A stretch of 64,000 nt of DNA from Candidatus Forterrea multitransposorum CG_2015-17_Forterrea_25_41 (lineage in GTDB: Archaea; Iainarchaeota; Iainarchaeia; Iainarchaeales; CSSED10-239), in the NCBI GenBank assembly GCA_009392915.1, contig CP045477.1, positions 576,001 through 640,000 on the forward strand. The letters are read 5' to 3'. Numbering within the stretch: the stretch's first letter is position 1; the number at the start of each line of letters is the position of its first letter. The position numbers and the translations under genes were made by a program. A model generated the notes under the pieces. The model worked only from the letters and a program-made list of their open reading frames with translations, had not been told where the DNA came from and ran no database searches. Of this stretch, positions 1-54,685 are shown one piece after another.

Positions 1-245
1 AAAATATTAAAAGAATGGAATTCTGGTTTTACAACAATTTCTAATTTTTTATTATCTTTAACAATAGAAAGAGAAGTTTTTCTTTTATTATAATCATTGA
101 TTAAATCATCTATCTGAATATCAATTATTTTTTTATCAATATTTGGAAATGAAGAATAAATTTTTGAAATTAAAGTTGATTTTGGAGATAGAAACAAAAT
201 AGCTTCAATTGCTTGTTTTAAATAATCACTACTTGTTTGGTCCAT
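1..245 (-). CDS. scpB: Segregation and condensation protein B (ScpB-like). Only the N-terminal ~81 aa are present and the C-terminus runs off the window start
   Basis: Reverse-complement translation from the ATG at 245 gives MDQTSSDYLKQAIEAILFLSPKSTLISKIYSSF. This matches the ScpB N-terminal winged-helix signature (A-I-E-A-I-L-F), and scpA lies nearby at 3779-4444. Confidence 0.45.
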   Translation of the reverse strand, partial: MDQTSSDYLKQAIEAILFLSPKSTLISKIYSSFPNIDKKIIDIQIDDLINDYNKRKTSLSIVKDNKKLEIVVKPEFHSFNI

Positions 246-266
246 TATAAATCACATGTTAAAAAA

Positions 267-1043
267 TTATTCTCTTTTTGCAGTTAATGTTTCATTACGT
301 GCAGGCATTATGTAAACAAAATAATCTCCCTCTGAAACTTTATCTCCAGTAGATTTTTCAATCCAATAAACAGTAGAGTCATCTTCTGATTGACTTAAAA
401 AACTTATAGATCCGTGAACCACATCACCTGTTTGATATTCTCCAGCTCCATTAAGAATAGGTTGAGAGATTCCAGTATCATTTTCTAAAGTTAAAGTATA
501 AGTTTCTGGCTCAGAAGATTCTGCTTGAAAAATTGCAGTAACTGATTTATTTTGAGTCATTGTAACGTCACAATTTATAGCAGCAGTATCACAATTTCCA
601 GTCCATCCTTGAAAAGTATTTCCTTCAGATGCATTTGCATTTAAAGTAACTGAAGTTCCTGAAGAATAATTTTGAGAACAATCAGTTCCACAATTAATAC
701 CTACTGGATTTGAAGTTACAGTTCCATTTCCAGAAACATTAACAGTTAATGTATAATTTTCAGGATCTGGTTCATCTGGTTCATCTGGTTCATCTGGTTC
801 AGGATCTTCTCCTCCAGGATTAGGATTAACATTATCTATTTCTTCAACTTGAGAAGAATCATTTAAATCTTCAATAAACCCATCAACTGTTGAATCTATT
901 CCTTCATTAATTTTGTCAGATTGACTTACTTTCTCATTTGAAAAATTAATAAAGGTTGTTGCAAGAACAATTGTACCTAAGACTAAAACACCAACTATAA
1001 TTACCATTTCTAAAGAAACTTGAGCTTTTTTATTTTGAATCAT
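267..1043 (-). CDS. Pilin-like surface protein with a class III (type IV pilin-like) signal peptide, a divergent InlB B-repeat (Ig-like) domain and a PEPDEPDEPD linker
   Basis: The N-terminus MIQNKKAQVSLEMVIIVGVLVLGTIVLA is a pilin-type signal (K-A-Q-V-S-L-E, QxSxE/DUF361-like, followed by a hydrophobic helix). It contains a GxGxVTSNPxGINCGxxCSxxYxxGTSVTLxAxxxxGxxFxGW unit typical of archaeal InlB-type repeats. Confidence 0.6.
   Translation of the reverse strand: MIQNKKAQVSLEMVIIVGVLVLGTIVLATTFINFSNEKVSQSDKINEGIDSTVDGFIEDLNDSSQVEEIDNVNPNPGGEDPEPDEPDEPDEPDPENYTLTVNVSGNGTVTSNPVGINCGTDCSQNYSSGTSVTLNANASEGNTFQGWTGNCDTAAINCDVTMTQNKSVTAIFQAESSEPETYTLTLENDTGISQPILNGAGEYQTGDVVHGSISFLSQSEDDSTVYWIEKSTGDKVSEGDYFVYIMPARNETLTAKRE
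764..806. repeat. Perfect 9-bp tandem repeat (atctggttc, about 4.5 copies) encoding the (EPD)n linker inside the pilin-like gene
   Basis: Seen directly in the sequence: ggatctggttcatctggttcatctggttcatctggttcagg. Confidence 0.8.
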
Positions 1044-1072
1044 ATTTATTCTTATTTTATATTTTTATAATA

Positions 1073-3265
1073 TTATTCTAAGCCACCATCAGTAATAGTC
1101 CAATTATAATTATTAATTAATATATTTTTTGCATCAACTGCAGAACTATCATAATTAACTGCTGTTGCACCTAATGTAACATTACTTTTTAAATTAGTTA
1201 AATTTGACCATCTAATTAAAATATTAGAATAATTTACAGTAGATAATGCATAATCAAACATATGAGCCATATCAGTTACATTTGAAACATCCCATGCACT
1301 AATATCTTGATCAAAACAAATATCAGAAATACTAAAGAAACATTGAAACATTCTGTTCATATTTGTAACATTTGAAACATCCCACATACTTATATTTTGA
1401 TTAAATGAATAATTATTATAAAACATAGAAGACATATCAGTTACATTTGAAACATCCCAATTATTCAATGGTTGATTAAATCTAGTACATCTAAACATTG
1501 CAGCCATATTAGTTACATTTGAAACATCCCAATTATTTATAGAAGTATTAGTCCATGAAAATACACCATTATTTGGAGGACTACTTACACTACAATTTTG
1601 ATAACCACTAAAAGTTCCTGCTAAATTTGTAATTCCGTTTAAATCAGGAACATCAGTTGCAGTTACAACTAAATTTGTAGCTCCAGAGAAATAATATCCA
1701 CTATTTCCAAATTTTAAATTACCCCATTGACTAATTTCAGTTAATTTTAATTTATCTCCAGAATTATTAAACCTAAAACCTTCAATAAAACCTGTTATGA
1801 TTACATCATATATCCCAGAACTTGAATATGTGTGAGTTTTATCAGGATCACTATAACTTGTAACCTCTGATGTAGTTCCATCTCCCCAATAAACTTTAAA
1901 ATTATAATTATTACTATAAAGAGAAGCAGAATCTAAAGGTAATGTAATTTGATTTGCATTTGAAGAACCAGTACTAATTTTTGTAGTATCCCATTTAGAT
2001 ATAAATGCATCTGAAGTAGGTATAAAATTTGCAGTTAAATTCACATTACTTGAAGGCATTGTATAACTAAATGAAGGATCTGTACTTACTACAGTACCAT
2101 TTTGATCAATCCAATTTACATAAGAAAATTCAGCAATAGAAGAGACAGATATATTTGCAACATCTCCAGGATTATAATTTCCTGCACCATTTAAACTAAT
2201 ATTTACTGAATCTGGATTTTCAATTAAATTTAAATTATAAGCAACAGGCAAACTAAAAGTTGCAGTTACATTTTTAACTTCAGTCATAGAAACAGAACAA
2301 CTAATTTGAGGTCCAGAACAATCCCCAGACCATCCTTCAAAAACATATCCTGAAACTGGAGTTGCATTTAATTGAACAGATTGTTGATCAGGAAAAGTTG
2401 CAGAACAGTTTGTTTGAGATTCTAAACAATTAATTCCAGAAGGATAAGTTTCAACAGTTCCTCCAATTGTTTTAGTTAAATTTAAAGTATAACTGTTTGG
2501 AAGATTAAAAGTTGCAGTTACATTTCTTGCTTGAGTCATGGAAACTGTACAAGTAAGATTAGTTCCTGAACAAGCACCTGACCATCCACCAAAACTATGA
2601 CCAGTAACAGGATTTGCAGTTAAAGTAACTGAAGTGCCTGAAGAATAATTTTCAGAACAATTAGTTCCACAATTAATACCAGAAGGATTTGAAGTCACAG
2701 TTCCATTTCCCGCACCACTTAAAGATACATTTAAAGTATAAGTTGATGGAGCAGTTGATGAAAAATTTGCAGTTAAAGAAGTATTTGAATTTAAATTAAA
2801 AGTATATGGATTTGTGGAAAGTGAACCTGTTGGAGTTGTCCAATTATTAAAAGTATAACCTGAAAGAGCAGTTGCAGTTGCAGTAACTGAAGTTCCACAA
2901 CTAAAAGTTCCAGCTCCTGAAACAGTACCACCTGCTGGAGGGTTTGAAGATAAAGTTAAAACACAATTACTACCAACACCTGAAATTGGTTCATAATCTT
3001 CAGGATTTGTTAAATCTTTAATAAAACCATCAATTGTTGAATTTGTAGCAGCATCAATTTCTCCTGCTTGATCTACTTTTTCATTTGTAAATCCAATTAA
3101 AATAGTTGCTAAAATAACAGCACCTAAAATCAAAACACCAATAATAATTATCATCTCTAAAGAGACTTGAGCTTTTTTACTTTTATTCATATCTTTATCC
3201 ACTTTTTTTACTTTTTTAGATTTTATTATTTTTTTAGATTTAATTTTTTTAACTTCTTTTTTCAT
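1073..3265 (-). CDS. Large pilin-like surface protein with a class III signal peptide, three InlB-type B-repeat (Ig-like) domains and a C-terminal array of DUF285/BspA-type 26-residue repeats. The true start is probably the internal Met at about 3190
   Basis: An internal MNKSKKAQVSLEMIIIIGVLILGAVILA matches the N-termini of the two neighbouring genes. It has the repeated unit GTVTSNPSGINCGTNCSENYSSGTSVTLTANP...GWSGxCSG. C-terminal repeats of the form WDVSNVTxMxxMF(x)FNQ match the Mycoplasma-type DUF285 leucine-rich surface repeat. Confidence 0.6.
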   Translation of the reverse strand: MKKEVKKIKSKKIIKSKKVKKVDKDMNKSKKAQVSLEMIIIIGVLILGAVILATILIGFTNEKVDQAGEIDAATNSTIDGFIKDLTNPEDYEPISGVGSNCVLTLSSNPPAGGTVSGAGTFSCGTSVTATATALSGYTFNNWTTPTGSLSTNPYTFNLNSNTSLTANFSSTAPSTYTLNVSLSGAGNGTVTSNPSGINCGTNCSENYSSGTSVTLTANPVTGHSFGGWSGACSGTNLTCTVSMTQARNVTATFNLPNSYTLNLTKTIGGTVETYPSGINCLESQTNCSATFPDQQSVQLNATPVSGYVFEGWSGDCSGPQISCSVSMTEVKNVTATFSLPVAYNLNLIENPDSVNISLNGAGNYNPGDVANISVSSIAEFSYVNWIDQNGTVVSTDPSFSYTMPSSNVNLTANFIPTSDAFISKWDTTKISTGSSNANQITLPLDSASLYSNNYNFKVYWGDGTTSEVTSYSDPDKTHTYSSSGIYDVIITGFIEGFRFNNSGDKLKLTEISQWGNLKFGNSGYYFSGATNLVVTATDVPDLNGITNLAGTFSGYQNCSVSSPPNNGVFSWTNTSINNWDVSNVTNMAAMFRCTRFNQPLNNWDVSNVTDMSSMFYNNYSFNQNISMWDVSNVTNMNRMFQCFFSISDICFDQDISAWDVSNVTDMAHMFDYALSTVNYSNILIRWSNLTNLKSNVTLGATAVNYDSSAVDAKNILINNYNWTITDGGLE
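1270..1535. repeat. Nucleotide-level tandem array with four or more copies of an acatttgaaacatccca core spaced about 72-90 bp apart. It encodes the WDVSNVT...MF 26-residue repeats
   Basis: The core occurs at about 1277, 1367, 1443 and 1515. Confidence 0.7.
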
Positions 3266-3279
3266 AAATATCTTTTCTC

Positions 3280-3663
3280 TTAATTAAAATTTGCTGTAAT
3301 ACCAGTATTAAAATTTAAATCAAAATAGAATATTTCAGTTTTGCTCATAATAGCTCCAGAAGAATCTTTCCAGTTTAAGAAACTATGACCTGTAGCAGGA
3401 ACAGCTTCTACTCTTACTTGAGTTCCACAAGCAAAACTACCATCTCCTTTAACAGTGCCAGCATCTTGAGGATTTACTGAAATTACTAGATTACAAATAA
3501 AGTTATCAACAATTTCATCTGTTTGTTTATTAATTGCATTAGATTGATCTGCTTTTGAAGAAGACATATTAATAACAATTGTTGCAAGAATAATTGTCCC
3601 TAAAACTAAAACACCAACGATAATCATCATTTCTAAAGAAACTTGAGCTTTTTTATTTATCAT
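3280..3663 (-). CDS. Small pilin-like protein (class III signal peptide plus one Ig-like B-repeat)
   Basis: The N-terminus MINKKAQVSLEMMIIVGVLVLGTIILA matches the downstream paralogs. The C-terminus has a CGTxVxVxAxPxxGxxFxxW B-repeat unit. Confidence 0.6.
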   Translation of the reverse strand: MINKKAQVSLEMMIIVGVLVLGTIILATIVINMSSSKADQSNAINKQTDEIVDNFICNLVISVNPQDAGTVKGDGSFACGTQVRVEAVPATGHSFLNWKDSSGAIMSKTEIFYFDLNFNTGITANFN

Positions 3664-3778
3664 AAAATATAATCCTTTAATTATAAATATAATATAAATA
3701 TAAATACATAATATATATAAATGTATTTGTTATAGAAGAATAAGTAAATAGTTTTAAAGATAAATAATTTTAAAGATC

Positions 3779-4444
3779 TTAAATAACTTTTATAAAAATC
3801 TCAGAAAAGAAATCATCTTGCCAAACATTTATCTTCTGATCTTGATGAAGAAATAAAAGAGGAATAAATAAATTATTAACAATATCAAAATTATCAATAT
3901 TTTTTGAAAAAAGATTTTTAAAAGTTAAACAACCTTCCTTATCTGCTTCTTTTTTAATTGAAGAAAAAAGAGAATCAATTCTTAAGTTAATATCTTCAGT
4001 TGATTTTGGAACAAAAAATTCAACTTCTGCTTTTTCTTTAATCATTTTTTCAATGTTTTTTTTAGTTGGTTTATTCATTATAGTATCTATTGCTTCAATT
4101 AAATCATCTAAAGAAACTTGACTTTCTTTATTTCTAATTGGATTTTCTAAGTTTAAAGCATTAAGTAAAATATCATCTTCTTTAGGTATTATTAAATCAT
4201 CTTCAGGATCAATACTTGAAAGCTTTAAAGTATATGTTTTAATTTTAAGAAGAATACTTGCAGCTAGAAGTGCATTTGCAGGAATCATTAAATTTTCTTC
4301 TTTAAACTCTATTATTTTTTTTAAATAGAGATCTGTAAGAGAAATAATATCAATATTCCAAATATCAAAATCATTTGATTTTACAAGATCAAACAAAAGT
4401 AGTTTCCAGTTTGGTTGATCTATAATGTTTACTAATTCTTCCAT
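3779..4444 (-). CDS. scpA: Segregation and condensation protein A (ScpA kleisin)
   Basis: The N-terminus LLLFDLVKSNDFDIWNIDIISLTDLYLKKI matches the ScpA pattern (LDLLL.LI.K.KIDI.DI.I..IT.QYL). The middle ANALLAASILLKIKTY and the C-terminus IPLLFLHQDQKINVWQDDFFSEIFIKV match the ScpA winged-helix end. Confidence 0.6.
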   Translation of the reverse strand: MEELVNIIDQPNWKLLLFDLVKSNDFDIWNIDIISLTDLYLKKIIEFKEENLMIPANALLAASILLKIKTYTLKLSSIDPEDDLIIPKEDDILLNALNLENPIRNKESQVSLDDLIEAIDTIMNKPTKKNIEKMIKEKAEVEFFVPKSTEDINLRIDSLFSSIKKEADKEGCLTFKNLFSKNIDNFDIVNNLFIPLLFLHQDQKINVWQDDFFSEIFIKVI

Positions 4445-4496
4445 ATATAAAAGATATCTTCAAAAAAGAATAAAAAGAGAAAGGTTTTTTAGTTTT

Positions 4497-5180
4497 TTAA
4501 TCTTCTAAAACCTTTGCATTAAAATTGTTTGCTTCAATATCACATAATTTAATTTTTTTACTTTGGCCTTCAATATATAAAACAGTATCTTTTTCAAAGT
4601 AAATTGTTACAGAATCACAAACTAATCTAAACCTTACAGATTTAGATTTTAGTAATTCATCAAAAATTAAATCTATATTTTCTGAAAAAACTATAATATC
4701 TATTCCTTGTTTTTTACCTTTAATTTTTGTTGAAATTTCATTTAAATCAATAGTTCCAACAACATTAAACTTTAAAATAAACTCTTTAATATCAAATGAA
4801 GAAATTAATTTTTGAATATATTCTTTAGCTTTTATAGTGTCTGAAAAGATATATGTTCTATAAGCTCTATATTTTTCAAAAAACTTATCAGCTTCACCCA
4901 TTTCTTTATAAAAACTATCCATTTCTTCTTTAATATTTGAAACTGTTGAATTCATTTTCTTAAAAAGAGAAATTAATTCTCTCTTATTAATTTCAGATTC
5001 TATATCTTTTTCTAAATATTCATTCTTTTTAACAATATCATTAATTTCTTTATAGTCATTTATAAGACTATTTAAAATATCATGAAGTGGATTGTAAAGC
5101 TCTAAAACCTTATTTGTTCTATATAGATTTTTATTTAAAGACTCAAAAGACTTTTTAACTTTATTATTAATATCAACCAT
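4497..5180 (-). CDS. Hypothetical protein
   Basis: Long ORF with a consistent codon bias. No motif was recognised. Confidence 0.4.
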   Translation of the reverse strand: MVDINNKVKKSFESLNKNLYRTNKVLELYNPLHDILNSLINDYKEINDIVKKNEYLEKDIESEINKRELISLFKKMNSTVSNIKEEMDSFYKEMGEADKFFEKYRAYRTYIFSDTIKAKEYIQKLISSFDIKEFILKFNVVGTIDLNEISTKIKGKKQGIDIIVFSENIDLIFDELLKSKSVRFRLVCDSVTIYFEKDTVLYIEGQSKKIKLCDIEANNFNAKVLED

Positions 5181-5277
5181 TTTTTAAAACCCCTTTTTTA
5201 AATTTGAAAAAATTCCCCTATAATAATATGATAAATGGTAATATTTAATAAAGCTATCTTTTTATGTAGATAACAGA

Positions 5278-6198
5278 TTATTTTTCAGACTTTAAATCTA
5301 AAAACATATGATATGATGCAATTGCTCCTTGAGAAGTAGAAGTTACAATTTGCTTAAGTTCTGTATGGTTAGTACAATCTCCAGCTGCAAATACACCTTC
5401 AATATTAGTTCTTTGAGCTTTATCTACAATAATTTCACCATGATCATCAAGTTTTATACTTAATTTATCTAAAAGCTCTGTATTTGGAACATGACCTATC
5501 TCAATAAATATTCCATCTAATACCATTTCATTATCATCTTTTAATTTAATTTTTTCTAATTTTTCAGAACCAATTAATTCTTTTATTTCAGAATTATAAA
5601 CAACTTCTACATTTTCTTGTTTAAATAAAGAATCAAGCCACATAGGTTCTGCTCTTAATTGAGAGCCTCTATATATTAAATAAACTTTCTTTGCAATTTC
5701 AGAAAGTAATAAAGCAGCAGTTACAGCAGCATCAGAACCACCAATAACACCTACAATTTTATCTTTATAAAAAGCTCCATCACAGGTAGCACAATAATGA
5801 ACCCCTTTACCTAAATATTTTTCTTCATTTTCAATATTTAAAGTTCTTTTTTTCTTTCCTATTGCAAGTAAAACTTTTCTTGCTTTTACAGTTTCTTGAT
5901 CAGTATTTACTATGAAAAAATCATCTTGTTTTTTAATATCCATAACTTTTTCATATTTTATAGGAATTTCTAAATTATTAACTTGTTCTACCATTTTTGA
6001 AATTAAATCCATACCAGTTACTTCTAAAAAACCAGGATAATTCCAAATAGTGTGAGCAGTAGAAGTTACTCCTCCAAAAGAATCTGTAAACATTATAGTT
6101 GACATTTTATATCTTCCTGAATAAAGTGCACTTGAAAGTGCTGCAACACCACCACCAACAATAACTAAATCATAAATATTTGAATTATTTTCATTCAT
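5278..6198 (-). CDS. trxB: Thioredoxin reductase (FAD/NAD(P)-binding)
   Basis: It has the YDLVIVGGGVAALSSALY FAD-binding fold, the redox-active CATCDG motif and a second GGSDAA dinucleotide motif. Confidence 0.75.
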   Translation of the reverse strand: MNENNSNIYDLVIVGGGVAALSSALYSGRYKMSTIMFTDSFGGVTSTAHTIWNYPGFLEVTGMDLISKMVEQVNNLEIPIKYEKVMDIKKQDDFFIVNTDQETVKARKVLLAIGKKKRTLNIENEEKYLGKGVHYCATCDGAFYKDKIVGVIGGSDAAVTAALLLSEIAKKVYLIYRGSQLRAEPMWLDSLFKQENVEVVYNSEIKELIGSEKLEKIKLKDDNEMVLDGIFIEIGHVPNTELLDKLSIKLDDHGEIIVDKAQRTNIEGVFAAGDCTNHTELKQIVTSTSQGAIASYHMFLDLKSEK

Positions 6199-6285
6199 TT
6201 TTTAATCACATTTCTAATTTTTAAAGTATTTTTCACTTGTATATATTTACAAGTATATATATTTACTATCCAAAAAATATATAAA

Positions 6286-6747
6286 CTAAACCTTTTCAAA
6301 CCTATCCCAAGGAAAAATCAACCAATCAACATTAGTTTTTGAATAGAAATCAGGATAAGAAGTACAGTTTTTTTTATTTACATAAAGACTTGCAATTTTT
6401 ACATCTTTTGGTTTATATTTTTCTTTTAATAAAGAAGAAATAAACTGAATAGTTTTACCAGAATCAACAATTTCATCTACAATTAAAATAGTTTTATTTT
6501 TTAGAAATTCTTTTGCAGGAAAATTAATTAATTCGATCTTACCTCTTTTTTCTTTAGAGTAAGATTTTACAGCAATACTAAAAAGATTTTTATTATCAAG
6601 AAGTCTTGATAAGTGAATAGCTGGAAAAAGGCCACCTACAGAAACACCTAAAATAACATCTGGAATATAGTTTTGTTTTTTTAATTGCAGAAATATTTTT
6701 TTACAATCATTTTCAATTTGAGTATAAGTAAGTTTTATTTTTGTCAT
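6286..6747 (-). CDS. Purine (hypoxanthine/guanine-type) phosphoribosyltransferase
   Basis: It has the PRPP-binding motif ILIVDEIVDSGKT and a type I PRTase fold of about 150 aa. Confidence 0.6.
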   Translation of the reverse strand: MTKIKLTYTQIENDCKKIFLQLKKQNYIPDVILGVSVGGLFPAIHLSRLLDNKNLFSIAVKSYSKEKRGKIELINFPAKEFLKNKTILIVDEIVDSGKTIQFISSLLKEKYKPKDVKIASLYVNKKNCTSYPDFYSKTNVDWLIFPWDRFEKV

Positions 6748-6815
6748 ATAATATTAATAAAACGAATAAAATAAAAATAGTATCTTAAAAAAAATAAAAA
6801 AAAGAAAGAGAAAAA

Positions 6816-7721
6816 TTATTCTCCATCTATATTAAGATTTAATTTTGCTTTAAGTTCTCTATATCTGTTTCTTATAGTAACTTCAGTTACACCAGCAACA
6901 TTTGCAACTTCTTTTTGAGTTCTTCTCTCACCTGTCATTAAAGCAGCTATATATACTGCAGCTGCAGCAACACCAGTTGGACCTCTTCCAGAAATTAAAC
7001 CAGATGCAATTGCTTTTTTAACAATTTGTTTAGCTTTATTTTCAACTTCTGAAGATAAAGTTAAAACAGAAACAAATCTTGAGATATAGTAACTTGGATC
7101 TGTTAAAGGAACAGCAATATCAAGTTCTTTTACAATGAACCTATATGTTCTTCCAATTTCTTTTTTTGTTAAACCTGAAGCTTCAGCCATTTCATTTAAT
7201 GTTCTTGGAACATTATATGTTCTACAGACAGAATAAAGAACAGCAGCAACAACAGCTTCAATTAATCTTCCTCTTATAAGTCCTTTTTCAACAGTTTTTC
7301 TATAAAGTAAAGCTGCAGTTTCAACTAAAGGATTTGGAATATTTAAATATGATGAAATTCTTTTAAGTTCTGTTAAAGCAATTGATAAATTTCTTTGAAC
7401 AGAGTTTGAAATTGAAGATCTTTTATGCCATTTAATTAATCTATACATTTGAGCTCTTGATTTTGTAGAAAGTTTATTACCTCTTAAATCTCTACCTGAT
7501 CTTTCAATCATAGTTTCAAGACCTTTGTTTATTTTTGTATATTTCATTGGTGAACCAGTACTAACATTATCTTGTTTTTCAGCATTATCAAAACTTCTCC
7601 AATCTTTTCCAGTATCGATTTGATCTTCTGATAAAACAGTATGACATTTACTACAGATATATTCTCCAGTTTTTGAATCTCTGTAGACTTTTGTGTTTCC
7701 ACATTCTGGACATTTAACCAT
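6816..7721 (-). CDS. tfb: Transcription initiation factor IIB (TFB)
   Basis: An N-terminal zinc ribbon (CPECG...CSKCHTVL) is followed by two cyclin-like repeats, which is the archaeal TFB architecture. Confidence 0.85.
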   Translation of the reverse strand: MVKCPECGNTKVYRDSKTGEYICSKCHTVLSEDQIDTGKDWRSFDNAEKQDNVSTGSPMKYTKINKGLETMIERSGRDLRGNKLSTKSRAQMYRLIKWHKRSSISNSVQRNLSIALTELKRISSYLNIPNPLVETAALLYRKTVEKGLIRGRLIEAVVAAVLYSVCRTYNVPRTLNEMAEASGLTKKEIGRTYRFIVKELDIAVPLTDPSYYISRFVSVLTLSSEVENKAKQIVKKAIASGLISGRGPTGVAAAAVYIAALMTGERRTQKEVANVAGVTEVTIRNRYRELKAKLNLNIDGE

Positions 7722-7905
7722 TGTTTACACCTCTATATTTTTTAAAAATTATAAAATTAGTTTACCATTTAATCTTTCTTTGTAATTTTTGTAAAACCTT
7801 GTATTTTATATAAGTTTTTGAAAAATAAGCAAACCTATATAAATATAATAGTTTTTCTAGTATTTAAAGGTTTTTATTTTTAAGTTTTCAAGAGTTTTTT
7901 TAAAA

Positions 7906-9342
7906 TTAAATATCTTCTTTAAACTTATAATTTATAACACTTGAAGTAAAAGTAGGTCTGAAAAGTAACCTTATAGCATCTCTATTTGGATAATAAATAA
8001 CCCCATCATTATCTTTAATTGAAATTATCTTTACAGAAGATAAATTACCATCTCTAAAATCAACTTCAGATTTTGAAGTTGTTAAAAAATTAAGAGTACT
8101 ATTATCTTTAATTATTTGTTGGATACTACTTCCTAAATAAATATTATTAAAAACAAAACTTAATTCAGGGAAAACAACTAAAACATCATCTTTTAAATTT
8201 AAAGAAATATCTTCAACAATACCTTTTATAAAATAAGGAGCAATAGGATCTTTTGGATTAATATTTATTAATTTTACAGAACCAATGTTTTGATATCTTT
8301 GTTTAAATAATACAGAAACATTTGTTTTATTAAAAAAAGAACCATATTTTTTATCTAAAACTATTAATTTTGATAAAACTCTTAATTTTTCAAAATCATT
8401 GATTTCATTTGTAATTTTTATAGCTTTAACTTTTGTAATTAAATCTTTAATTGTTATAATATCTTTTGAAAAAACTTGATTAATTATTTTTAAAGAAACA
8501 TCTTTAAATGAAAAAATATTTACAAAAGCATCAAAAGGAATTTTTCCTAATGGCATTTTAATATCAGAATAATTTATTTTTTTAACAGGAAACCCAAAAG
8601 GATCCATATTAAGTTCAAATTTATCTAAAACTTCAGAATTCTGTTGAGGATAACCAAGACTTATAAAATTATTAACAGTATCAAAAACAATAACTGTTTT
8701 TGAAGAAAGCAAATAATTTTCACAAATAATTTTAGATATAAATAATCTATCATCAAGATTTGGACCATAAACAGAAACACTTTTTAAATTTGAAAGAGAA
8801 GTTGTAACAGTAATATCTTTCTTTTTACCTAAAATTAATTTATCTAAAGGAGTTGAAGATTTAAAATCTAAAGACAAAGGCATATTTGATAAAGATTTAA
8901 TAACTTCAGGATCTGAAAAGAAATAATCATTATCTCTTTTTTCTGCAAGTTTTAAAGAAATTAATTTTATATTATAAGATTTAACAACAGAAATTACAGA
9001 ACCTACCATCTTGTTTAGTTCAGTTATTTTTTTATCTACATGATAAGATAAAGTATTAATGTCTACATATTCTGTTTCTGTATGTAGTAATAAATATTTA
9101 AAATTATTTTTTGAACCTATGTCAATATGTTTTTGATAAACAATAGCTGGAAATGGAAGAGTATTTGCAAAAGTTTCTAAATCTCCTTTAACTACAAATA
9201 CCTTATATACTTGTATGAGTACATTAGTCTTATCTCTTAGTCTTAAAAAAGACACAAAAATATCATCCTTATACAAAATGTTTAATTCTTGATTTCCGTA
9301 TTTTCCTTCATATAAGGTATTCCATGTGTTTAAAGAAATCAT
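7906..9342 (-). CDS. Hypothetical protein (478 aa)
   Basis: Long ORF. No motif was recognised. Confidence 0.4.
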   Translation of the reverse strand: MISLNTWNTLYEGKYGNQELNILYKDDIFVSFLRLRDKTNVLIQVYKVFVVKGDLETFANTLPFPAIVYQKHIDIGSKNNFKYLLLHTETEYVDINTLSYHVDKKITELNKMVGSVISVVKSYNIKLISLKLAEKRDNDYFFSDPEVIKSLSNMPLSLDFKSSTPLDKLILGKKKDITVTTSLSNLKSVSVYGPNLDDRLFISKIICENYLLSSKTVIVFDTVNNFISLGYPQQNSEVLDKFELNMDPFGFPVKKINYSDIKMPLGKIPFDAFVNIFSFKDVSLKIINQVFSKDIITIKDLITKVKAIKITNEINDFEKLRVLSKLIVLDKKYGSFFNKTNVSVLFKQRYQNIGSVKLININPKDPIAPYFIKGIVEDISLNLKDDVLVVFPELSFVFNNIYLGSSIQQIIKDNSTLNFLTTSKSEVDFRDGNLSSVKIISIKDNDGVIYYPNRDAIRLLFRPTFTSSVINYKFKEDI

Positions 9343-25590: not shown

Positions 25591-26436
25591 GTGAGAAATA
25601 TGAAGAACATTTTAGAATATATAGATCAATTATTAATAAAATCAAGAGAGATTTATAGATTAATGCCAACTCCACTCTATAAACTTGAAAAAAAAGAACT
25701 GATTGATAAATTAAATGAAATAAAAACAAGCCTTGAAAGCTTATCAAAAGAAATCTTAGAACTTAATAAATATACAGTAATACAATATTCTTCAGAAGTT
25801 AATTTTTCAAAAATGGATCTATTTTATCAAAACTTTTTAATGATTTCTAATAATATTAATTCTCAAATGTTTTTAGAGATTAATAAAAAAGAAATAAATC
25901 ATGATTTAATAAATATTAAAGAAGCAATTACAAGACCACAGATTTTTTATGATATAGAAGAACAATTAAAAAATGAAATCACATTATTTTTAAGTTTTTT
26001 AGAAGAAGTTAAAACAAAAGTAAAGTATAAATATGTAGATTTATCTAATCAAAAAAAATCTATTGAAGAACTATTAAGAATAATTCAAGATAAAGAAGAA
26101 GATAATAAACTACTTAGGAAAAAAGTACAAGATTATAAGTGGCTAGAATCAAAAGAAAGAGCAAAAGAATCATTAATAACAAATCTTGAAAATGAATTAA
26201 TTAAAAAAATAAAAATTAATGAAAAGAAAAGTGTCTTATTAAATGTACATTTACTTAAAGTTGAAAAAGAAATTACAGAAATGTATAAAGTAATTAAAAA
26301 GCTAACACTTGATATAGATGAAAGTGAAAAAGCAAATCTTGAAAAAGAAAAATTAGCATTAGAGCTTATAAAAGAACTTAAAGACGAACTTTTAAGTACA
26401 AGATATGCATTATCAAAAGTATATGAGGGTAAATAA
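25591..26436 (+). CDS. Coiled-coil protein (hypothetical)
   Basis: K/E-rich heptad-like sequence throughout. Confidence 0.35.
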   Translation: MRNMKNILEYIDQLLIKSREIYRLMPTPLYKLEKKELIDKLNEIKTSLESLSKEILELNKYTVIQYSSEVNFSKMDLFYQNFLMISNNINSQMFLEINKKEINHDLINIKEAITRPQIFYDIEEQLKNEITLFLSFLEEVKTKVKYKYVDLSNQKKSIEELLRIIQDKEEDNKLLRKKVQDYKWLESKERAKESLITNLENELIKKIKINEKKSVLLNVHLLKVEKEITEMYKVIKKLTLDIDESEKANLEKEKLALELIKELKDELLSTRYALSKVYEGK

Positions 26437-27918
26437 ATGGCTGAAAAGTTTGATCCATTTTCATCAGGAAGCACAAATTATTATAATCCAACTTCTGAAA
26501 AGAAAAAAAGTAATGGACTTGTAACATTTATACTTGTGATAATATTAATTGGACTTGGAATTTATTATGGTTCAAACTATTTATTTCTAAATAAAGTAGA
26601 TGTAACTTTTAATATTAAGAACACAGAAGGAGAAACTATTCCTGCAAACATACAAATTTCAAAAAGTCCTATGTTTACAGATACAGTTCTTAATTTACAA
26701 AATGGAACTACAGGAGAATTGAAGAAAGGTAGCTATTATTATCAGATACAAGCAACAGGATATAAGTTATATAAATCAAGTACAGAAAAAGAATTTAAAG
26801 AAACATTTAATGAAGACTTTGAACTTGAAAAAAATATTAGTCTAAAATTAGAAAAAATTACTTTTCCAGAAAAAGTTTTTAAAAACCAAATGGCAATTCT
26901 TTCAATTGAAGTTATAAATACTTCAGAAAAAGAAATATATACTCCATCAAATATCATTGTAGAAGGTGATATTGAAGAATGGAATTTTGAATATGTTGAT
27001 AATTATCAAGAAGTAATATCTGTTGAAGATATAGTTATTCCACCAAAACAAAGAATGAATATAAATTTAAGATATATTGTGGACGATACTGGAGATAAAG
27101 AAAATGATATTAAGGTAAGAATTAAATATAAATCAGATTCTAAAAAAACTAGTTTTGAAATCATAGAAATTCCAGAAATCACAATAAAAGCAGATATTGA
27201 AAAAACAATTGAAAGTGGAAGTAATAGTAATTTTACAATAAATATTGGAAATTCTAAGAATAGCAGTCCTATTTCAGACTTAAAAATAGCACTTGAAATT
27301 GAAAGTGAAGAAAATGAAACTGTAGAAGAATGGTTTAATTATGATAAAGGGAACATTGTAATCCCTGCTAAAAGAAATACAACTTTAAGTCTTTCAGTTT
27401 CAATACCTCAATATGCAAAAAGTGATACACTTAATGGAAATTTAATTTTTTCAAGTTCTGCATTTGATGAAAATAAAGTTATTCCAATAAAAATTACAAT
27501 TGAAGAACCAAGCATTGATTTTGATACAAAATTAAGTACAAGTGAAACAGAAATTAATTATGATGTAAATAATAACACTACTGATAAAAAATATATTACT
27601 TTAACTTTAGATAATAAAAGTTCAATTGATATAGAAATTGTAAACATATCTATTCTTAATTTAGATCCTGACAAAAAAGATTGTAATAACTACATATATA
27701 TTTCAGAAAACTCACTTCCAGATAAAAGAGTTATTAAAAACACAAAACCAGAAATACCAATTACAATATTTGCAAAAGATCCTTCATTAATTGGAGATCC
27801 AATAAATAACACCAGGATTTGTGGAATAAATGTAGAATACAAACATCCTTTTAGAATAGAAGAAACAATTAATATTTCTAAAAATATTATAATAAATATT
27901 GAAGAAAAAACATCATAA
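26437..27918 (+). CDS. N-terminally anchored extracellular protein (hypothetical)
   Basis: It has the TM helix LVTFILVIILIGLGIYYG followed by a beta-rich, polar sequence. Confidence 0.4.
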   Translation: MAEKFDPFSSGSTNYYNPTSEKKKSNGLVTFILVIILIGLGIYYGSNYLFLNKVDVTFNIKNTEGETIPANIQISKSPMFTDTVLNLQNGTTGELKKGSYYYQIQATGYKLYKSSTEKEFKETFNEDFELEKNISLKLEKITFPEKVFKNQMAILSIEVINTSEKEIYTPSNIIVEGDIEEWNFEYVDNYQEVISVEDIVIPPKQRMNINLRYIVDDTGDKENDIKVRIKYKSDSKKTSFEIIEIPEITIKADIEKTIESGSNSNFTINIGNSKNSSPISDLKIALEIESEENETVEEWFNYDKGNIVIPAKRNTTLSLSVSIPQYAKSDTLNGNLIFSSSAFDENKVIPIKITIEEPSIDFDTKLSTSETEINYDVNNNTTDKKYITLTLDNKSSIDIEIVNISILNLDPDKKDCNNYIYISENSLPDKRVIKNTKPEIPITIFAKDPSLIGDPINNTRICGINVEYKHPFRIEETINISKNIIINIEEKTS

Positions 27919-27938
27919 ATTAAAAGAGTTAATATAGT

Positions 27939-29771
27939 ATGGAACACATAGATTGGATTGTATCATTTGTAATTTTTATATTTGTAATACTTGCAATAAT
28001 TACAGCAATACCAAGATTTCTTCCAGACAATTTAAAACAAGAAGATATATATACTTCAAAAATAGTTTATTCTCAATTAACTGAAAATATTGATAAATAT
28101 ACAATATATTCAGATAATAATTATCAAGATATATTTTTTTTAGAAGACATTAACAAAGGAAGAGCAATTTCTAATTTTATAATTGATGAAAATATTCTAT
28201 TTTTAGATTATATTAAAAAATCAAATTTTTATTATTATGATGCAAATAGTTCTTTTGAAAAACCAAAAACTATTATTTTTAAAGAAAAAATAATTGATGA
28301 AAATAGTTTAGTTAATTTTCAATTAGATCAAGGACAAATAATTAGCTTTAATGGAGAAGCATATGCCTATCAAGAAACTACATTAAAAAGTATAGAAAAT
28401 TATTCTAATGTTTATTTTGAGTATGTTGTAGAACCACAAGACATGAATGTTTATTTTAATTATGCAGATGTTAATAATTACTCACTTTGTTCAATAGATC
28501 AAAATCAGCTTAAATTATATGATCAAAATAGCTCTGGAAGTTATTTAGTAGATTTTGTAGATGTTAATTTTGATGAAGATCAGTATTTTATAACATTAAA
28601 AGTAAATACAAACTATACTGGAGAAGTTAGTTGTGTTATTGAGGATTATATAGCTGAAAATAATACACAAAGTTCTATTAATAGTGGGCAAATAATTTTA
28701 AAAAATATTAATGAACAATTTATAGATAGCTTTGAAATATACAAGAATAATTATCTTGAAATTAACTCAAATACAATCAATACAAATTATTTTGATCTAG
28801 AAATTACTGGAAACCAAATTGATGCAAATATTTTTGAAAATAGAAATCTTCTTGGAAATATAAAATTAAGTTTTGAAAATAATTTAGATTATAGCTTAAT
28901 TGAAAACAATAATCCAGGAATAATAAAAGATAGTTTATCAAAACAAAAATTAGTTATTTTTCCAAACACAAATCAATTAATAACAGTTATTGAAAATGAA
29001 GATGTTAATTTTGAAGTATCACAAGGACTTGAAATTAATAATTATGATTATGAAATAGAATATTTAACAGATTATTATACTTGGATTAAAATGGATGTTC
29101 TTGCAAATTCTCAAAAAACAGTTTATTTAAATAAAATTCAAGGATATCAACCAGAGAATGATTTTTCAAAAGTTTATGATAGCCCAACTCATCCAAGCAC
29201 AACAGTTACAAACCAAGGAAGTGGATTATTTAAAATTGATATAGATAATACTGGAGGATTAGAACTTTCAGATTATGAAATTAGAATAGATAATAATATT
29301 TTAAGTCTATCATCTACAACTGAAAGTTTATTGATTACAGATTCTAATTTTACAAATGTTAATAAAATAACACTTAAAAACAAAACAGAAAATAAATATG
29401 TAATTATTGAATTTTTAGATAAAGATAGAAATCTTAAAGAATGTACAGTAAATATTATAGATGATGGTTTTAATATAAATTGTACAAGCAAAACATATTT
29501 AAAAATAAAAATTACAGACACAACAGAACAAGAAAAAAGTAAATATTTAAAGAGTTCTGAAAAAATAATTACTAAAGAAAAAATAGATGATGTTAATCTA
29601 GATGTAATTGATAACTATAATTACTTTATTAAACTATATAATAATAAAGAAAACGTAGAAATTGGAAACTATGGATATTCAGGAGATTTTAAAATTCTCG
29701 AAAAAATATCTAAATATTTAAATGAAAAAGGACAAGAAGAAATAGTTAAAGTTTTAATAAAACCTAACTAA
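27939..29771 (+). CDS. N-terminally anchored extracellular protein (hypothetical, 610 aa)
   Basis: It has the TM helix IVSFVIFIFVILAIITAI followed by an N/Y-rich extracellular sequence. Confidence 0.4.
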   Translation: MEHIDWIVSFVIFIFVILAIITAIPRFLPDNLKQEDIYTSKIVYSQLTENIDKYTIYSDNNYQDIFFLEDINKGRAISNFIIDENILFLDYIKKSNFYYYDANSSFEKPKTIIFKEKIIDENSLVNFQLDQGQIISFNGEAYAYQETTLKSIENYSNVYFEYVVEPQDMNVYFNYADVNNYSLCSIDQNQLKLYDQNSSGSYLVDFVDVNFDEDQYFITLKVNTNYTGEVSCVIEDYIAENNTQSSINSGQIILKNINEQFIDSFEIYKNNYLEINSNTINTNYFDLEITGNQIDANIFENRNLLGNIKLSFENNLDYSLIENNNPGIIKDSLSKQKLVIFPNTNQLITVIENEDVNFEVSQGLEINNYDYEIEYLTDYYTWIKMDVLANSQKTVYLNKIQGYQPENDFSKVYDSPTHPSTTVTNQGSGLFKIDIDNTGGLELSDYEIRIDNNILSLSSTTESLLITDSNFTNVNKITLKNKTENKYVIIEFLDKDRNLKECTVNIIDDGFNINCTSKTYLKIKITDTTEQEKSKYLKSSEKIITKEKIDDVNLDVIDNYNYFIKLYNNKENVEIGNYGYSGDFKILEKISKYLNEKGQEEIVKVLIKPN

Positions 29772-29932
29772 ATCATTAATTTAAATATTAAAACCACAAC
29801 TACAAAAGCAATAGATAAACCAACTACTAATTCTGGTGAAAGCTTATAACCACCTAAACTTTCATTAAACTTCATAATACCAATAGCACTACTTGGTCCT
29901 TGACTATTACTCTTCATTTGCTTTAATTTCAT
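29768..29932 (-). CDS. Preprotein translocase subunit Sec61-beta/SecG (54 aa). It was not in the ORF track
   Basis: Translation MKLKQMKSNSQGPSSAIGIMKFNESLGGYKLSPELVVGLSIAFVVVVLIFKLMI matches the archaeal Sec61-beta pattern. That pattern is a small protein with a conserved P..V....AF motif leading into a C-terminal TM helix. Confidence 0.4.
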   Translation of the reverse strand: MKLKQMKSNSQGPSSAIGIMKFNESLGGYKLSPELVVGLSIAFVVVVLIFKLMI

Positions 29933-30040
29933 AAATATTACACCTCTAATAATAAATATATATATAGAAAACTATTAAATAACTTACTCTTATATAATTT
30001 ATGTAAGAACAGTTAAAAAAAATTAAAAAAAGGATAATAA

Positions 30041-31018
30041 ATGATTAATAAAAAAATGATTTGGAAAACTGCAGTAGTTATAATAATGATAATTATTCTA
30101 CTATATCTTTTAGTATGGGCAGGAACAGTTAGATGTAAATCTATTCCTGGAATGTGTTCTATTTACTGGGGAACCCAAACATTAATTACTGGAAAACAAC
30201 AACCAAGCATATTAATTGTTTATAATCCATCAGATATAGAAGGTCTTGGAAATCCTTATCTTCTAGAGAAAACAATAAGAGATAATAAAATAATTGGAAT
30301 GAATGTAAGACTTGAAAATATAAATTATTTAAGTGAAGAAAAACTAAAAAATGAAGCAATGGTAATAGTTACAAAATCTAGAAAAATATCTACACCAAAG
30401 CTTGAAATGTTTATTAATTATGTATCAACTGGTGGTAGACTTATTTGGGTCGGAGATGCTGGAATAGAAAAAGAAACAAACTTAGATGTTCTTGCAACAA
30501 AAGGAGATATTGAAGGTTCATTTGATTCTAATATTGTAAGTGGCTGGGCAAGACTTGATTCTGAAAACTATATTTTAAGATTTGATAATTTCTTAGGAGT
30601 TAATTATCTTAATAATTATTGCCAAGTAAAAGATTGTCAAGATAAAATATATAAAGTTGCTAATGGTATTGAACTTAATTATAAAAAACCAATTGCTAAT
30701 AATGGAGTACTTATACCAAGTTCAGAACATCGTATGGTCTATGGACTTAGAAGTTATCTTGAAGTAAAAGATGATTTTGCAATTGTACAAACACTAAAAC
30801 CAATGACAACTCCTTTAAAATTAGATTTTGGATCAACACTTTTTGATTCAGAGAAAGTATCTTATGGAAATGAAGAAGGAGTATTCCCTTTAATAATATT
30901 AAGTAATTCAAATAAAGTTGCATACTATGCAATGCCTCCAGAATATTTAATTGAAGATGATGATAAAGAGAAATATTATTCAATAATTGAAAATATGATA
31001 TATGGTATGGTTAAATGA
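30041..31018 (+). CDS. N-terminally anchored protein of the pilus locus (hypothetical)
   Basis: It has the TM helix AVVIIMIIILLYLLVWAG and is the first gene of a same-strand cluster ending in a pilus ATPase. Confidence 0.35.
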   Translation: MINKKMIWKTAVVIIMIIILLYLLVWAGTVRCKSIPGMCSIYWGTQTLITGKQQPSILIVYNPSDIEGLGNPYLLEKTIRDNKIIGMNVRLENINYLSEEKLKNEAMVIVTKSRKISTPKLEMFINYVSTGGRLIWVGDAGIEKETNLDVLATKGDIEGSFDSNIVSGWARLDSENYILRFDNFLGVNYLNNYCQVKDCQDKIYKVANGIELNYKKPIANNGVLIPSSEHRMVYGLRSYLEVKDDFAIVQTLKPMTTPLKLDFGSTLFDSEKVSYGNEEGVFPLIILSNSNKVAYYAMPPEYLIEDDDKEKYYSIIENMIYGMVK

Positions 31019-31024
31019 TAATTT

Positions 31025-31396
31025 ATGATTAAATCTGTAGAAGCTGTTATTGCTGTAATGATTCTTTTTTTATTCATAATAACATTATTTTCAAGCTATA
31101 CAAAAACAGAAACTAGAGAAAACTTAATGATTGAAAAAAGTTCAGAAATATTTTTAATCAATGCACAAAATAAAGAATTTAGAGATTATATACAAGAAAA
31201 TAAAGGTCAAATAATATATAATGAATTATATGGTTATATAGATAGTAATTATTCAATAAAAATATGTGATTTTTTAGAAGAAAATGAAAACTGTGCTGAT
31301 TTTGGAGATACAGTTCCTGATAAAAAAAGTTTAAGCTCTTTTAATTATTATTTTTATGATATTAATAAAACTTTAAATATAATAGTGTGGTCTTAA
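31025..31396 (+). CDS. Pilin-like protein (class III signal peptide)
   Basis: The N-terminus MIKSVEAVIAVMILFLFIITLFS is a short polar head plus hydrophobic helix typical of archaeal pilins. Confidence 0.4.
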   Translation: MIKSVEAVIAVMILFLFIITLFSSYTKTETRENLMIEKSSEIFLINAQNKEFRDYIQENKGQIIYNELYGYIDSNYSIKICDFLEENENCADFGDTVPDKKSLSSFNYYFYDINKTLNIIVWS

Positions 31397-31399
31397 AAA

Positions 31400-31858
31400 A
31401 TGAAAGAAAAAGGATTTACATACATAATAATTGTTGTTTTTATTATGATATTTGTAACTATGCTTTTTTTAATCTCAAAAAACATAAACTATTCAAATAA
31501 AATAAAACATTTAGTATCAAACTATAAAACTGAAATCAACTATCTTTCAGAAAATAACTTAATAGATGTAAATAGTTTAGATGAGTTTAATATAAATTTT
31601 AAAGAATTTATAAAATCAAATAACTATAATAGTAAAGCTTGTGGAATATATTTTGATGGTAATAAATACATTCTAAGTAATTATCTTGATGCAAATTATA
31701 CTCTGATACAAGAAAATCAAACTATTGAAATATTAGCAGAAAGTGTTTCAGAAGATATCATATTTGGAAATTGTGAAATGGATATTTCTTTAGAAAATTC
31801 ACTTTCTTTTTATATAGAAATTTATAATGATTCTGAGAAAAGTATATATAAACAATAA
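31400..31858 (+). CDS. Pilin-like protein (class III signal peptide, KG/F cleavage site)
   Basis: The N-terminus MKEKGFTYIIIVVFIMIFVTMLF fits a prepilin peptidase site after KG. Confidence 0.45.
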   Translation: MKEKGFTYIIIVVFIMIFVTMLFLISKNINYSNKIKHLVSNYKTEINYLSENNLIDVNSLDEFNINFKEFIKSNNYNSKACGIYFDGNKYILSNYLDANYTLIQENQTIEILAESVSEDIIFGNCEMDISLENSLSFYIEIYNDSEKSIYKQ

Positions 31859-31925
31859 AAAAAGATAGCTTTATAAAGTAAACGAACTAATAATTTATAA
31901 TATATTATATTAATAAATTTAGAAG

Positions 31926-32276
31926 GTGTTAATGATTATGAACGAAATTAAAGAAAATATTAGCCAAATAGCATTAAAAAGTAATGAAATTGTAGCAAAA
32001 TTAGAAATATTAAGAGCTCTTGAAGAACATAAAGAAAGTATTTCTGAAGAAATTACAAAAACTAAAGAAAAGTTAGAAAAAGAAGAAATTACAAAATTTA
32101 CTTATGCTACAATGCAAGAAGTTAATCAAAAAAATTTAGATGATAACACAAATAGAAGAAAAATAATCTGGAATGAAATTGCAGAAACTATTAATAATAT
32201 TAGTGATAATTTAAATGGTCTTAAAGAATTATACAATCAAAAAACAGAAAACAACGACGCTCCAGAAGTTAAATAA
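31926..32276 (+). CDS. Hypothetical coiled-coil protein
   Basis: ORF in the pilus cluster. Confidence 0.3.
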   Translation: MLMIMNEIKENISQIALKSNEIVAKLEILRALEEHKESISEEITKTKEKLEKEEITKFTYATMQEVNQKNLDDNTNRRKIIWNEIAETINNISDNLNGLKELYNQKTENNDAPEVK

Positions 32277-32303
32277 ATCTTTATTAGGGAATATTGATGA
32301 AAT

Positions 32304-53891: not shown

Positions 53892-54148
53892 TTTTTATAG
53901 AACCTATTAAAAATTAAAAGTTATTACAGATTTCTTTAATCTAATAAAATTAAAATACTAAATGTAATAACTTATTTTTATATTCGATTTTTAAAACATA
54001 AAAACAAAAATGTTTTTATGGCATACCTTATATGCAATCAGGAAACATTTTACAGATGTAGTTTTTAGAATATACACTTTGCATATTTTAAAAAATAAAA
54101 ATAAATATACAAACTCTGATAAAACCTTATTTCTTTAAAAATAAGGAG

Positions 54149-54269
54149 AAACTACTGAACACAGCGCAGGCCGATGTTGTTGTTCCGGTTCCCAGGAGTA
54201 TTGTTCAAGTTCAAGTTCAAGACCCCTGCATTAGTTCCATTGTTCCAGTTACCACCGCGCAGGAAAGAA
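54149..54269 (-). repeat. DGR template repeat (TR), 121 bp and non-coding
   Basis: It is a near copy of 55343-55463 but carries AAC/AAT codons in the minus orientation where the genic copy has mixed bases. It lies between the avd stop and the RT start. It is GC-rich against the AT-rich background. Confidence 0.85.
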
Positions 54270-54345
54270 ACGACTCCTTTTTCTGTAAAAGCCCTATTCT
54301 TTTTATAACTAAAAAGAACAAAATAAATAATTATTAGAAAAGTTT

Positions 54346-54675: not shown

Positions 54676-54685
54676 ATTATAAACA

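Follow-up and report, generated by a model that had tools for sequence, protein, structure and literature searches.

Candidate modular pilins with strain-variable heads between scpA and scpB of Candidatus Forterrea multitransposorum

DPANN archaea depend on attachment to other cells, and the molecules with which they choose and hold their hosts are largely unknown. In Candidatus Forterrea multitransposorum, an ultrasmall DPANN archaeon, three genes with pilin-like N-termini lie between scpA and scpB, raising the questions of what these genes encode and how they came to separate the pair. We examined the locus in a stretch of 64,000 nt (assembly GCA_009392915.1, contig CP045477.1, positions 576,001 to 640,000), referred to below as the window; the GC content of the genome is 24%. 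All five open reading frames (ORFs) of the locus were found where an earlier sequence-only reading had placed them, all on the minus strand: scpA at 3779..4444, p127 at 3280..3663, p730 at 1073..3265, p258 at 267..1043, and the 5′ end of scpB at 1..245. With a probability of roughly 60%, we interpret the three intervening genes as encoding archaeal type-IV-pilin-like modular pilins of the Epd/EppA (DUF361/UPF0333) class, which carry swappable adhesin heads and occupy a lineage-specific slot that was created once and then diversified.

Each of the three proteins carries the sequence KKAQVSLEM followed by about 22 hydrophobic residues, a motif that is unique to them across the 64 kb in any frame. 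The product of p127 is a compact pilin-like protein with a 6-aa signal (MINKKA/Q, the slash marking the predicted cleavage site), an N-terminal helix and one Flg_new_2 beta-sandwich attached without a linker, and we regard it as a candidate filament-forming or minor pilin. The product of p730 is built as a modular pilin-adhesin, in which the signal and the N-terminal module (N-module) are followed by four Flg_new_2 domains (~aa 99-415), a PKD-like segment, and a DUF285/PARCEL head (~aa 500-700) that also matches TIGR02167 (52.4 bits; cut-off 30). The product of p258, a modular pilin, has a 7-aa signal (MIQNKKA/Q), the N-module, an acidic (EPD)n linker, and two Flg_new_2-type beta-sandwiches. 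The sequence-only reading had assigned InlB B-repeat domains to all three proteins and a DUF285 array to the 730-aa member, and both assignments were confirmed, the former by PF18998 (Flg_new_2) at 49 bits in p127, 50.5 bits in p258 and 148 bits in four stretches of p730, and the latter by PF03382 at 175.3 bits against a cut-off of 25. A 9-nt perfect tandem repeat, ATCTGGTTC, present in about four units at 765-800, encodes the (EPD)n linker of p258, which is 6 residues shorter in the orthologue from an independent metagenome-assembled genome (MAG; locus L170, GCA_015657875.1).

The signal peptides had been described as near-identical and of the class III QxSxE type. The type was upheld, whereas near-identity was not, as the three N-termini share only 69-81% of their amino acids and 74-85% of their nucleotides over the first 32 codons, and 50-61% of their amino acids over the 62-aa module. 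In p730, Met26 (MNKSKKAQ, window 3190) is conserved among relatives, and the gene of one relative is called from that Met; Met26 is therefore probably the true start, which would give p730 a 7-residue signal peptide like those of both neighbours. Read in this way, the three signals (MINKKA/QVSLE, MIQNKKA/QVSLE, and MNKSKKA/QVSLE) all combine a short basic leader with Gln at +1 and Glu at +5. This agrees with how EppA substrates are defined in the literature, namely by a signal peptide of 5-13 aa, Gln and Glu at +1 and +5, respectively, and a DUF361 domain (PMC3875500). The residue before the predicted cleavage site is Ala in the window proteins and Gly in many relatives. An extracellular location of the cargo is supported by the density of N-glycosylation sequons, which is 39-44 per 1000 aa in the cargo (44 in p730) versus 0-13 in the flanking proteins, and by paired Cys in the cargo domains, with 14 Cys in p730. 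In the AlphaFold2 (AF2) model of p127, a helix (residues 2-53) is followed by a sandwich (residues 56-126), with a mean predicted local distance difference test score (pLDDT) of 81.9 and block means of 95-98 from residue 61 onward. The p730 head (aa 416-730), modelled from a single sequence, reached a pLDDT of 40 and gave no usable fold.

How widely is this N-terminal design used? An exhaustive hidden Markov model (HMM) search of 1.84 billion proteins with the 62-80-residue N-module returned only 118 cluster representatives, and the match begins no more than about 50 residues from the N-terminus in all of them except one 177-aa protein and a 1779-aa outlier. The motif [GAS]QxSxE is present in 109 of the 119 proteins examined from this family. 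Members range from 43 to 1779 aa, with 34 shorter than 100 aa and 57 of at least 200 aa, and the long ones carry Flg_new_2, CHB_HEX_C_1, Fn3_assoc, GLUG, Lcl_C, Big_7, DUF285, RCC1, and Fib_succ_major domains; 77 members span 23 different Pfam families. PF04021 (Class_IIIsignal) was detected at E ≤ 1e-4 in 11 of 77 long members, and the 81-aa relatives are labelled 'UPF0333 family' by JGI. Word-indexed searches performed poorly: the N-module alignment recovered four 80-82-aa proteins, and p127 recovered itself and one 59% relative. Because a pilin module occurs in one polypeptide with PF18998 or PF03382 domains that score above their cut-offs, the proteins have the architecture of modular pilins, and the bacterial motif IPR012902 is not found in them.

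Two known families come closest, the Epd/EppA-type pilins of methanococci and the modular pilins of bacteria. Like the Epd pilins of Methanococcus maripaludis (EpdA-E/MMP1685; DUF361/PF04021, UPF0333; processed by EppA), the window proteins and their family have a basic leader ending in Gly or Ala, Q+1, E+5, and a hydrophobic helix, and occur in the size classes of module-only proteins of ~70-90 aa, pilins of 130-160 aa, and larger forms. Unlike the Epd pilins, the window proteins fuse the module to long InlB-B-repeat stalks and a DUF285 head, their genes lie inside the scpA-scpB pair and away from any assembly cluster, all three score under the Pfam cut-off, and no EppA was found within the window. 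Membership in the Epd class is supported by the signal and not by the Pfam cut-off, the peptidase content in view, or structural matches. The Epd pili represent archaeal type IV filament (TFF) 'system 1', which has been reported in methanogens, Thermococcales, and some DPANN. In bacteria, modular type IV pilins such as PilB and PilC of Streptococcus sanguinis and CofB of enterotoxigenic Escherichia coli (ETEC) consist of a small pilin module onto which a functional module, an adhesion module for example, is grafted via a linker; they come in many architectures, ultrasmall bacteria of the Candidate Phyla Radiation (CPR) included, similar designs are incorporated into pili, and display at the tip has been proposed (Raynaud et al. 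2021, PMC8179133). That survey is limited to bacteria and to the IPR012902 N-methylation motif (PMC8179133), whereas the signal in the window is of the archaeal Q+1 type. The window differs further in its multi-domain stalk and in heads that differ among near-identical strains at one fixed slot. Surface proteins of the BspA-like/DUF285 (PARCEL) and InlB B-repeat types are known from Mycoplasma, Listeria, and Bacteroidota, where they rely on Sec signals, lipoprotein signals, or cell-wall anchors; here the domains sit on an archaeal pilin module.

Do the three genes really divide a pair that otherwise stands together? The 221-aa product of scpA, the upstream flank of the slot, matches PF02616 with 41.0 bits against a cut-off of 24.6, and its 81 homologues are annotated at the source as segregation and condensation protein A. 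The downstream flank, scpB, runs off the window after its first 81 codons, which match PF04079 with 29.8 bits against a cut-off of 27.4; the complete ScpB on the parent contig has 154 aa and is followed by lon. Both assignments made from the sequence therefore passed the HMM check. The surroundings of ScpA homologues were retrieved for 169 loci. An iterated profile served to find ScpB in them, and the genes were scored as adjacent when they overlapped or were separated by a gap of ≤30 nt. Both genes were found in 85 DPANN loci, which were taken as informative; 52 distant loci had no scpB within reach of the profile and were treated as uninformative rather than scored as non-adjacent. The two genes are adjacent or overlapping in 70 of the 85 informative loci, as the sequence-only reading had assumed, and because adjacency is the usual state, we conclude that the three genes interrupt an ancestral pair. 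The arrangement is no assembly artefact, since the same neighbours were found on 23 further contigs and the same gene order in the independent MAG. The order scpB-lon-trm5 is kept in L001, L006, and L008.

The split loci, 15 in all, are confined to the family-level group of the window itself, and 13 of them come from a single ScpA clade with a QVSxE pilin gene after scpA; the remaining two (L023 and L096) are relatives outside the pilin clade with no pilin in the gap. In a neighbor-joining tree of ScpA, the scpA-pilin-scpB arrangement forms a clade of 12 loci whose ScpA is at least 61% identical to that of the window, and every sampled member has a QVSxE pilin directly after scpA. In the sister clades (ScpA 52-58% identical), scpA and scpB are contiguous. 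The sequence-only reading had proposed that an arrangement conserved throughout the lineage would speak against an insertion; the slot is indeed conserved within the clade, yet the sister clades are contiguous, so that objection holds only by half. This distribution points to a single, old, clade-wide event rather than a recent one in the genome of the window, and the split possibly arose when scpA and a neighbouring pilin gene changed places locally. As a related observation, in one sister clade with contiguous scpA and scpB (L008, L017, L018, L020, L024, L095), a QVSIE-type pilin gene (140-432 aa) lies upstream of scpA and stops 8-30 nt before it.

The content of the slot varies across the clade from one 81-aa pilin (L016) to three genes, the longest encoding 932 aa. 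A single pilin of 264 or 266 aa is found in L019 and L092, and one 899-aa protein in L014, while larger slots hold proteins of 259 (non-pilin), 177, and 581 aa in L013, of 594, 932, and 157 aa in L012, and of 138, 774, and >101 aa in L090. In L015 and L099, an 81-aa pilin is accompanied by three unrelated small genes, one of which is antitoxin-like. The three-gene layout of the window is shared with L090, L010, and L170, whose ScpA is 88-100% identical. Within the locus, the paralogues are 75-77% identical in DNA over the N-modules and 74-78% over the shared B-type domains. A recent duplication, as proposed from the likeness of the N-termini, was ruled out at this level of DNA identity (74-85% over N-modules and shared B-type domains) and by the layout common to L090, L010, and L170; the duplications are old, because the paralogous N-termini have diverged in DNA and the relatives have the same three genes.

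The subclade with 81-aa pilins (L015:2829-4350, L099:10674-12659, L016:3616-3807) also holds non-pilin genes in the slot, with products of 199, 175, and 115 aa, of which the 115-aa protein shows a weak likeness, just under the cut-off, to UPF0175/DUF6290 antitoxins. A very basic ORF of ~42 aa, beginning MGKISSRLKRKLQVRAK..., lies in the scpA-pilin spacer of this subclade. In the NCBI assembly GCA_964526055.1 (L002:11402-11617), a run of N interrupts the second pilin gene and gives an ORF of 1028 aa with X, compared with 932 aa in the sister assembly L012; repeat-rich adhesin genes of this kind are evidently hard to assemble.

Given this variable content, we considered whether a mobile island or a horizontally transferred cassette was acquired recently and landed by chance between scpA and scpB. 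Its total GC is raised (0.29-0.35 versus 0.20-0.25 in the flanks), DUF285 and Flg_new_2 are typical of bacterial surface proteins, and the slot contains unrelated genes in some relatives, among them that for the antitoxin-like UPF0175/DUF6290 protein. However, the cargo has the same GC3 (0.07-0.11) as the flanks (0.07-0.10), so the higher GC of the block reflects amino-acid composition. No integrase was found at the locus, no flanking direct repeats were found beyond AT-rich chance matches, and no tRNA gene is adjacent, the nearest lying 13.0 and 23.4 kb away. Moreover, all sampled members of a whole ScpA clade have a pilin gene after scpA, and the N-module is a lineage-typical family. With no flanking repeats, no adjacent tRNA, and native GC3, we ruled out a mobile island and consider such an origin extremely unlikely.

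If the duplications are old, what has changed recently? The independent MAG L170 has the order scpA-127-764-252-scpB-lon, and its DNA is 97-100% identical to that of the window over scpA, p127 (99% for this gene), scpB, lon, and, in p730, the initial 225-260 codons. Between about position 2475-2595 of the window and the p730 stop (1073), the two genomes could not be aligned, either with blastn or in a sliding-identity profile; the colinearity in blastn breaks at position 11968 of L001 and resumes at 13385. The strain-variable 'head' segment of p730 therefore extends from approximately residue 225-263 to the stop (1073..2595, minus strand). In the L170 allele (P0089), the third and fourth sandwiches and the DUF285 head are swapped for a C-terminus that contains Fib_succ_major. 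A strain fragment, L171 (2-4704), holds two tandem p730-like genes that share a near-identical first ~330 aa and have different heads: one copy (P0120) has an unrelated C-terminal region that appears Lcl_C/DUF1566-like by eye, and the second, called from MNKSKKAQVSLEM, has a longer DUF285 array and reaches the contig end after >808 aa. The p730 orthologue in L090 has six Flg_new_2 domains and no DUF285. The ectodomain of p258 also evolves rapidly between the window and L170, with a dN of 0.195 and a dN/dS of 0.89, as compared with 0.00-0.03 and 0.00-0.17 in the housekeeping flanks. Judged from these alignments, the striking recent change is the replacement of C-terminal heads among close strains, not duplication.

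The constant 5′ part, comprising the pilin module and the first stalk domains, could serve as a homologous anchor for head exchange. At the locus we found neither a recombinase nor inverted repeats nor silent cassettes. A constant N-terminal part with interchangeable C-terminal parts that set partner specificity is also known from the pilus-associated adhesin PilV of the thin pilus of IncI1 plasmid R64, which is varied by a shufflon, and from the tips of phage tail fibres. Unlike in R64, the variation described here is among strains and not inside one genome, and the locus has no shufflon features.

Could the position next to scpA and scpB itself be meaningful? One explanation is that the linkage is functional, in that the pilin-like genes are co-expressed with or regulate the kleisin and ScpB genes, or that a small N-module protein acts with SMC-ScpAB at the membrane. 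In two sister clades a QVSxE pilin gene adjoins scpA, upstream in one (pilin-scpA-scpB; L017, L018, L020, L024, and L095) and downstream in the other, the window's clade (scpA-pilin-scpB), and only 21 nt separate the stop of p258 from the start of scpB. On the other hand, scpA stands without a pilin gene nearby in several members of the sister clades (L022, L025-L027, L098, L100), the cargo varies strongly and bears extracellular features, and we know of no biology that ties pilins to condensin. In addition, a T6 run between the p258 stop and the scpB start and the larger AT-rich spacers before scpB in relatives permit separate transcription. We consider a functional linkage of this kind very improbable.

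Upstream of the cargo, a TATA/BRE-like box, ACAAATACATTTATATATA, lies at 3712..3730 on the minus strand in the 115-nt spacer between scpA and the pilin genes, 58 nt upstream of the first pilin ATG, and AAAGGA is found at 3673-3678, 9 nt before the ATG of p127. Similar boxes (ACAxATAxATTTATAxA) precede the first pilin gene in L001, L090, L012, L019, L092, L014, and L011. Because this box is conserved, the pilin genes probably have their own promoter. A scan for sigma-70 promoters and hairpin terminators was set aside, as the model is bacterial, the counts were at chance level, and the genome is archaeal. A variant of the functional explanation, in which the recurrent pilin-scpA linkage has a role and scpB (with lon) is read through from strongly promoted pilin genes in the window's clade, would couple the synthesis of adhesin and SMC-ScpAB to one signal. 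If true, an episymbiont might draw this signal from contact with its host, for instance, or from the cell cycle. We regard this as a long shot.

Returning to the modular-pilin interpretation, we propose the following scheme. Each protein would be made with a basic signal peptide of 6-7 residues, which an EppA-like prepilin peptidase would cut at KKA/QVSLE. The N-terminal helix of ~50 residues would then anchor the protein in the membrane, from where a type-IV-filament machine may build it into a pilus or show it at the tip. In this scheme, p127 would act as an ordinary small pilin, and p258 and p730 as sparse or tip-located modular pilins whose stalks, strings of InlB-B-repeat-like beta-sandwiches, project a binding head, the DUF285/PARCEL array in the case of p730. 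The head would presumably mediate adhesion, and since the archaeon is an ultrasmall member of the DPANN, a host cell or another surface is its most plausible target. Episymbiosis of the Saccharibacteria, an analogous ultrasmall group, depends on type IV pili as its driver, and by this analogy host attachment is plausible. The slot itself has diversified by tandem duplication, domain accretion, and head replacement among close strains. The 3′ head segments would be exchanged among co-occurring strains via the constant 5′ homology, presumably by homologous recombination or gene replacement, and such an exchange may change binding specificity or help to evade phages or antagonists.

Several observations weigh against this interpretation. 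A protein of ~700 aa cannot be a bulk filament subunit and could at most be incorporated at the tip or sparsely. The PF04021 scores of the three proteins, 19.6, 15.9, and 17.6 bits, are under the cut-off of 23.7 bits, which one relative (L019) passes with 24.6 bits, and the confidence of the N-terminal helix in the p127 model is modest (pLDDT ~56-71). Neither an A24/EppA-like prepilin peptidase (by eye, Pfam, and NCBIfam, among the multi-TM proteins) nor a T2SSF-type platform protein was recognised within the 64-kb window. The main competing explanation is that the class-III signal serves only for export and membrane anchoring, and that the proteins are not polymerised but sit in the membrane or across the S-layer as anchored surface adhesins or binding proteins, much as sugar-binding proteins with pilin signals do in the Sulfolobus bindosome. 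It accommodates p730 and its relatives of up to 1779 aa, which are too large for a filament body, as well as the lack of assembly genes adjoining the locus and the absence of any structural match between the globular part and solved pilins. Non-pilus proteins that bear class-III signals are documented, and work cited in PMC4858521 ascribes a broad substrate range to PibD.

The same explanation fits less well with the many module-only family members of 70-90 aa, which are the size of the M. maripaludis major pilin MMP1685 (74 aa), and with p127, whose compact form of a helix plus a sandwich is that of ordinary archaeal pilins. Bacterial modular pilins of similar design do enter pili (PMC8179133), and a type-IV-filament ATPase cluster is present in the same window. 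The ATPase, of the FlaI/PilB family, is encoded at 32304-34331, 28 kb from the locus, and matches PF00437 with 110 bits and NF058587 with 323 bits, the latter below the equivalog cut-off of 550 bits. On balance, we consider anchoring without polymerisation rather unlikely.

The surroundings of the ATPase gene form a candidate type-IV-filament assembly cluster (25591-36629), in which the gene is preceded by five same-strand ORFs of 493, 610, 325, 123, and 152 aa, each with one N-terminal transmembrane (TM) segment; the 152-aa ORF, the last of the five, begins MKEKGFTYIIIVVF. The ATPase gene is followed on the opposite strand by a gene (35652-36629) for a protein of 325 aa, for which 7 TM segments are predicted and which matches no family. 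Farther along the window, a complete diversity-generating retroelement (DGR) occupies 52860-56707 on the minus strand, with a reverse transcriptase (52860-53891; RVT_1, 83.9 bits), bAvd (54346-54675; 76.9 bits), a template repeat at ~54149-54269, and a variable repeat at ~55343-55463, at the 3′ end of the target gene. All core mismatches between the two repeats (20/20) are at template adenines. The 453-aa target (55346-56707) has an archaeal pilin-type N-terminus, FQKGISPLIATILLIVV, which matches Pilin_N with 15.7 bits, below the cut-off, and an FGE-sulfatase domain of the C-type-lectin fold. As the DGR target has a pilin-type N-terminus, this genome diversifies a further surface protein with a class-III signal, and does so by another mechanism.

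The locus itself is part of a run of minus-strand genes that covers 1-9342 of the window. In the 5′ to 3′ direction, the genes for TFB, a phosphoribosyltransferase, a thioredoxin-reductase-like protein, and a 227-aa protein precede scpA, p127, p730, p258, and scpB, with lon following on the parent contig. The gene for the 227-aa protein (4497-5180) lies directly upstream of scpA throughout the window's clade and not in the sister clades; neither its product nor a conserved 478-aa protein encoded upstream of TFB (7906-9342) has a significant match in Pfam or NCBIfam. Within scpA, the conserved segment KESQVSLDDL (4107-4145) resembles the pilin sequence KKAQVSLEM in both peptide and DNA, with 79% DNA identity to the p258 copy over 39 nt, and forms a fourth member of the N-terminus repeat family. 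The likeness is probably a coincidence; it is possible that the stretch represents microhomology near a rearranged site.

In summary, the modular-pilin locus described here is well defined and hypervariable, its evolutionary history is clear, and it involves no new kind of machinery. It offers a clean case of an ancestrally coupled gene pair that was split and then kept split across a clade. It would also extend the idea of modular pilins, surveyed so far only in bacteria, to the archaeal Q+1 (Epd/EppA) class. A constant anchor and stalk with a strain-variable outer domain is the pattern expected of a determinant of host range or phage evasion, and the locus thereby supplies concrete candidates for the host attachment molecules of DPANN archaea. 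The conserved scpA and scpB flanks provide a handle for PCR or read recruitment, with which head types may be catalogued in metagenomes and correlated with co-occurring hosts.

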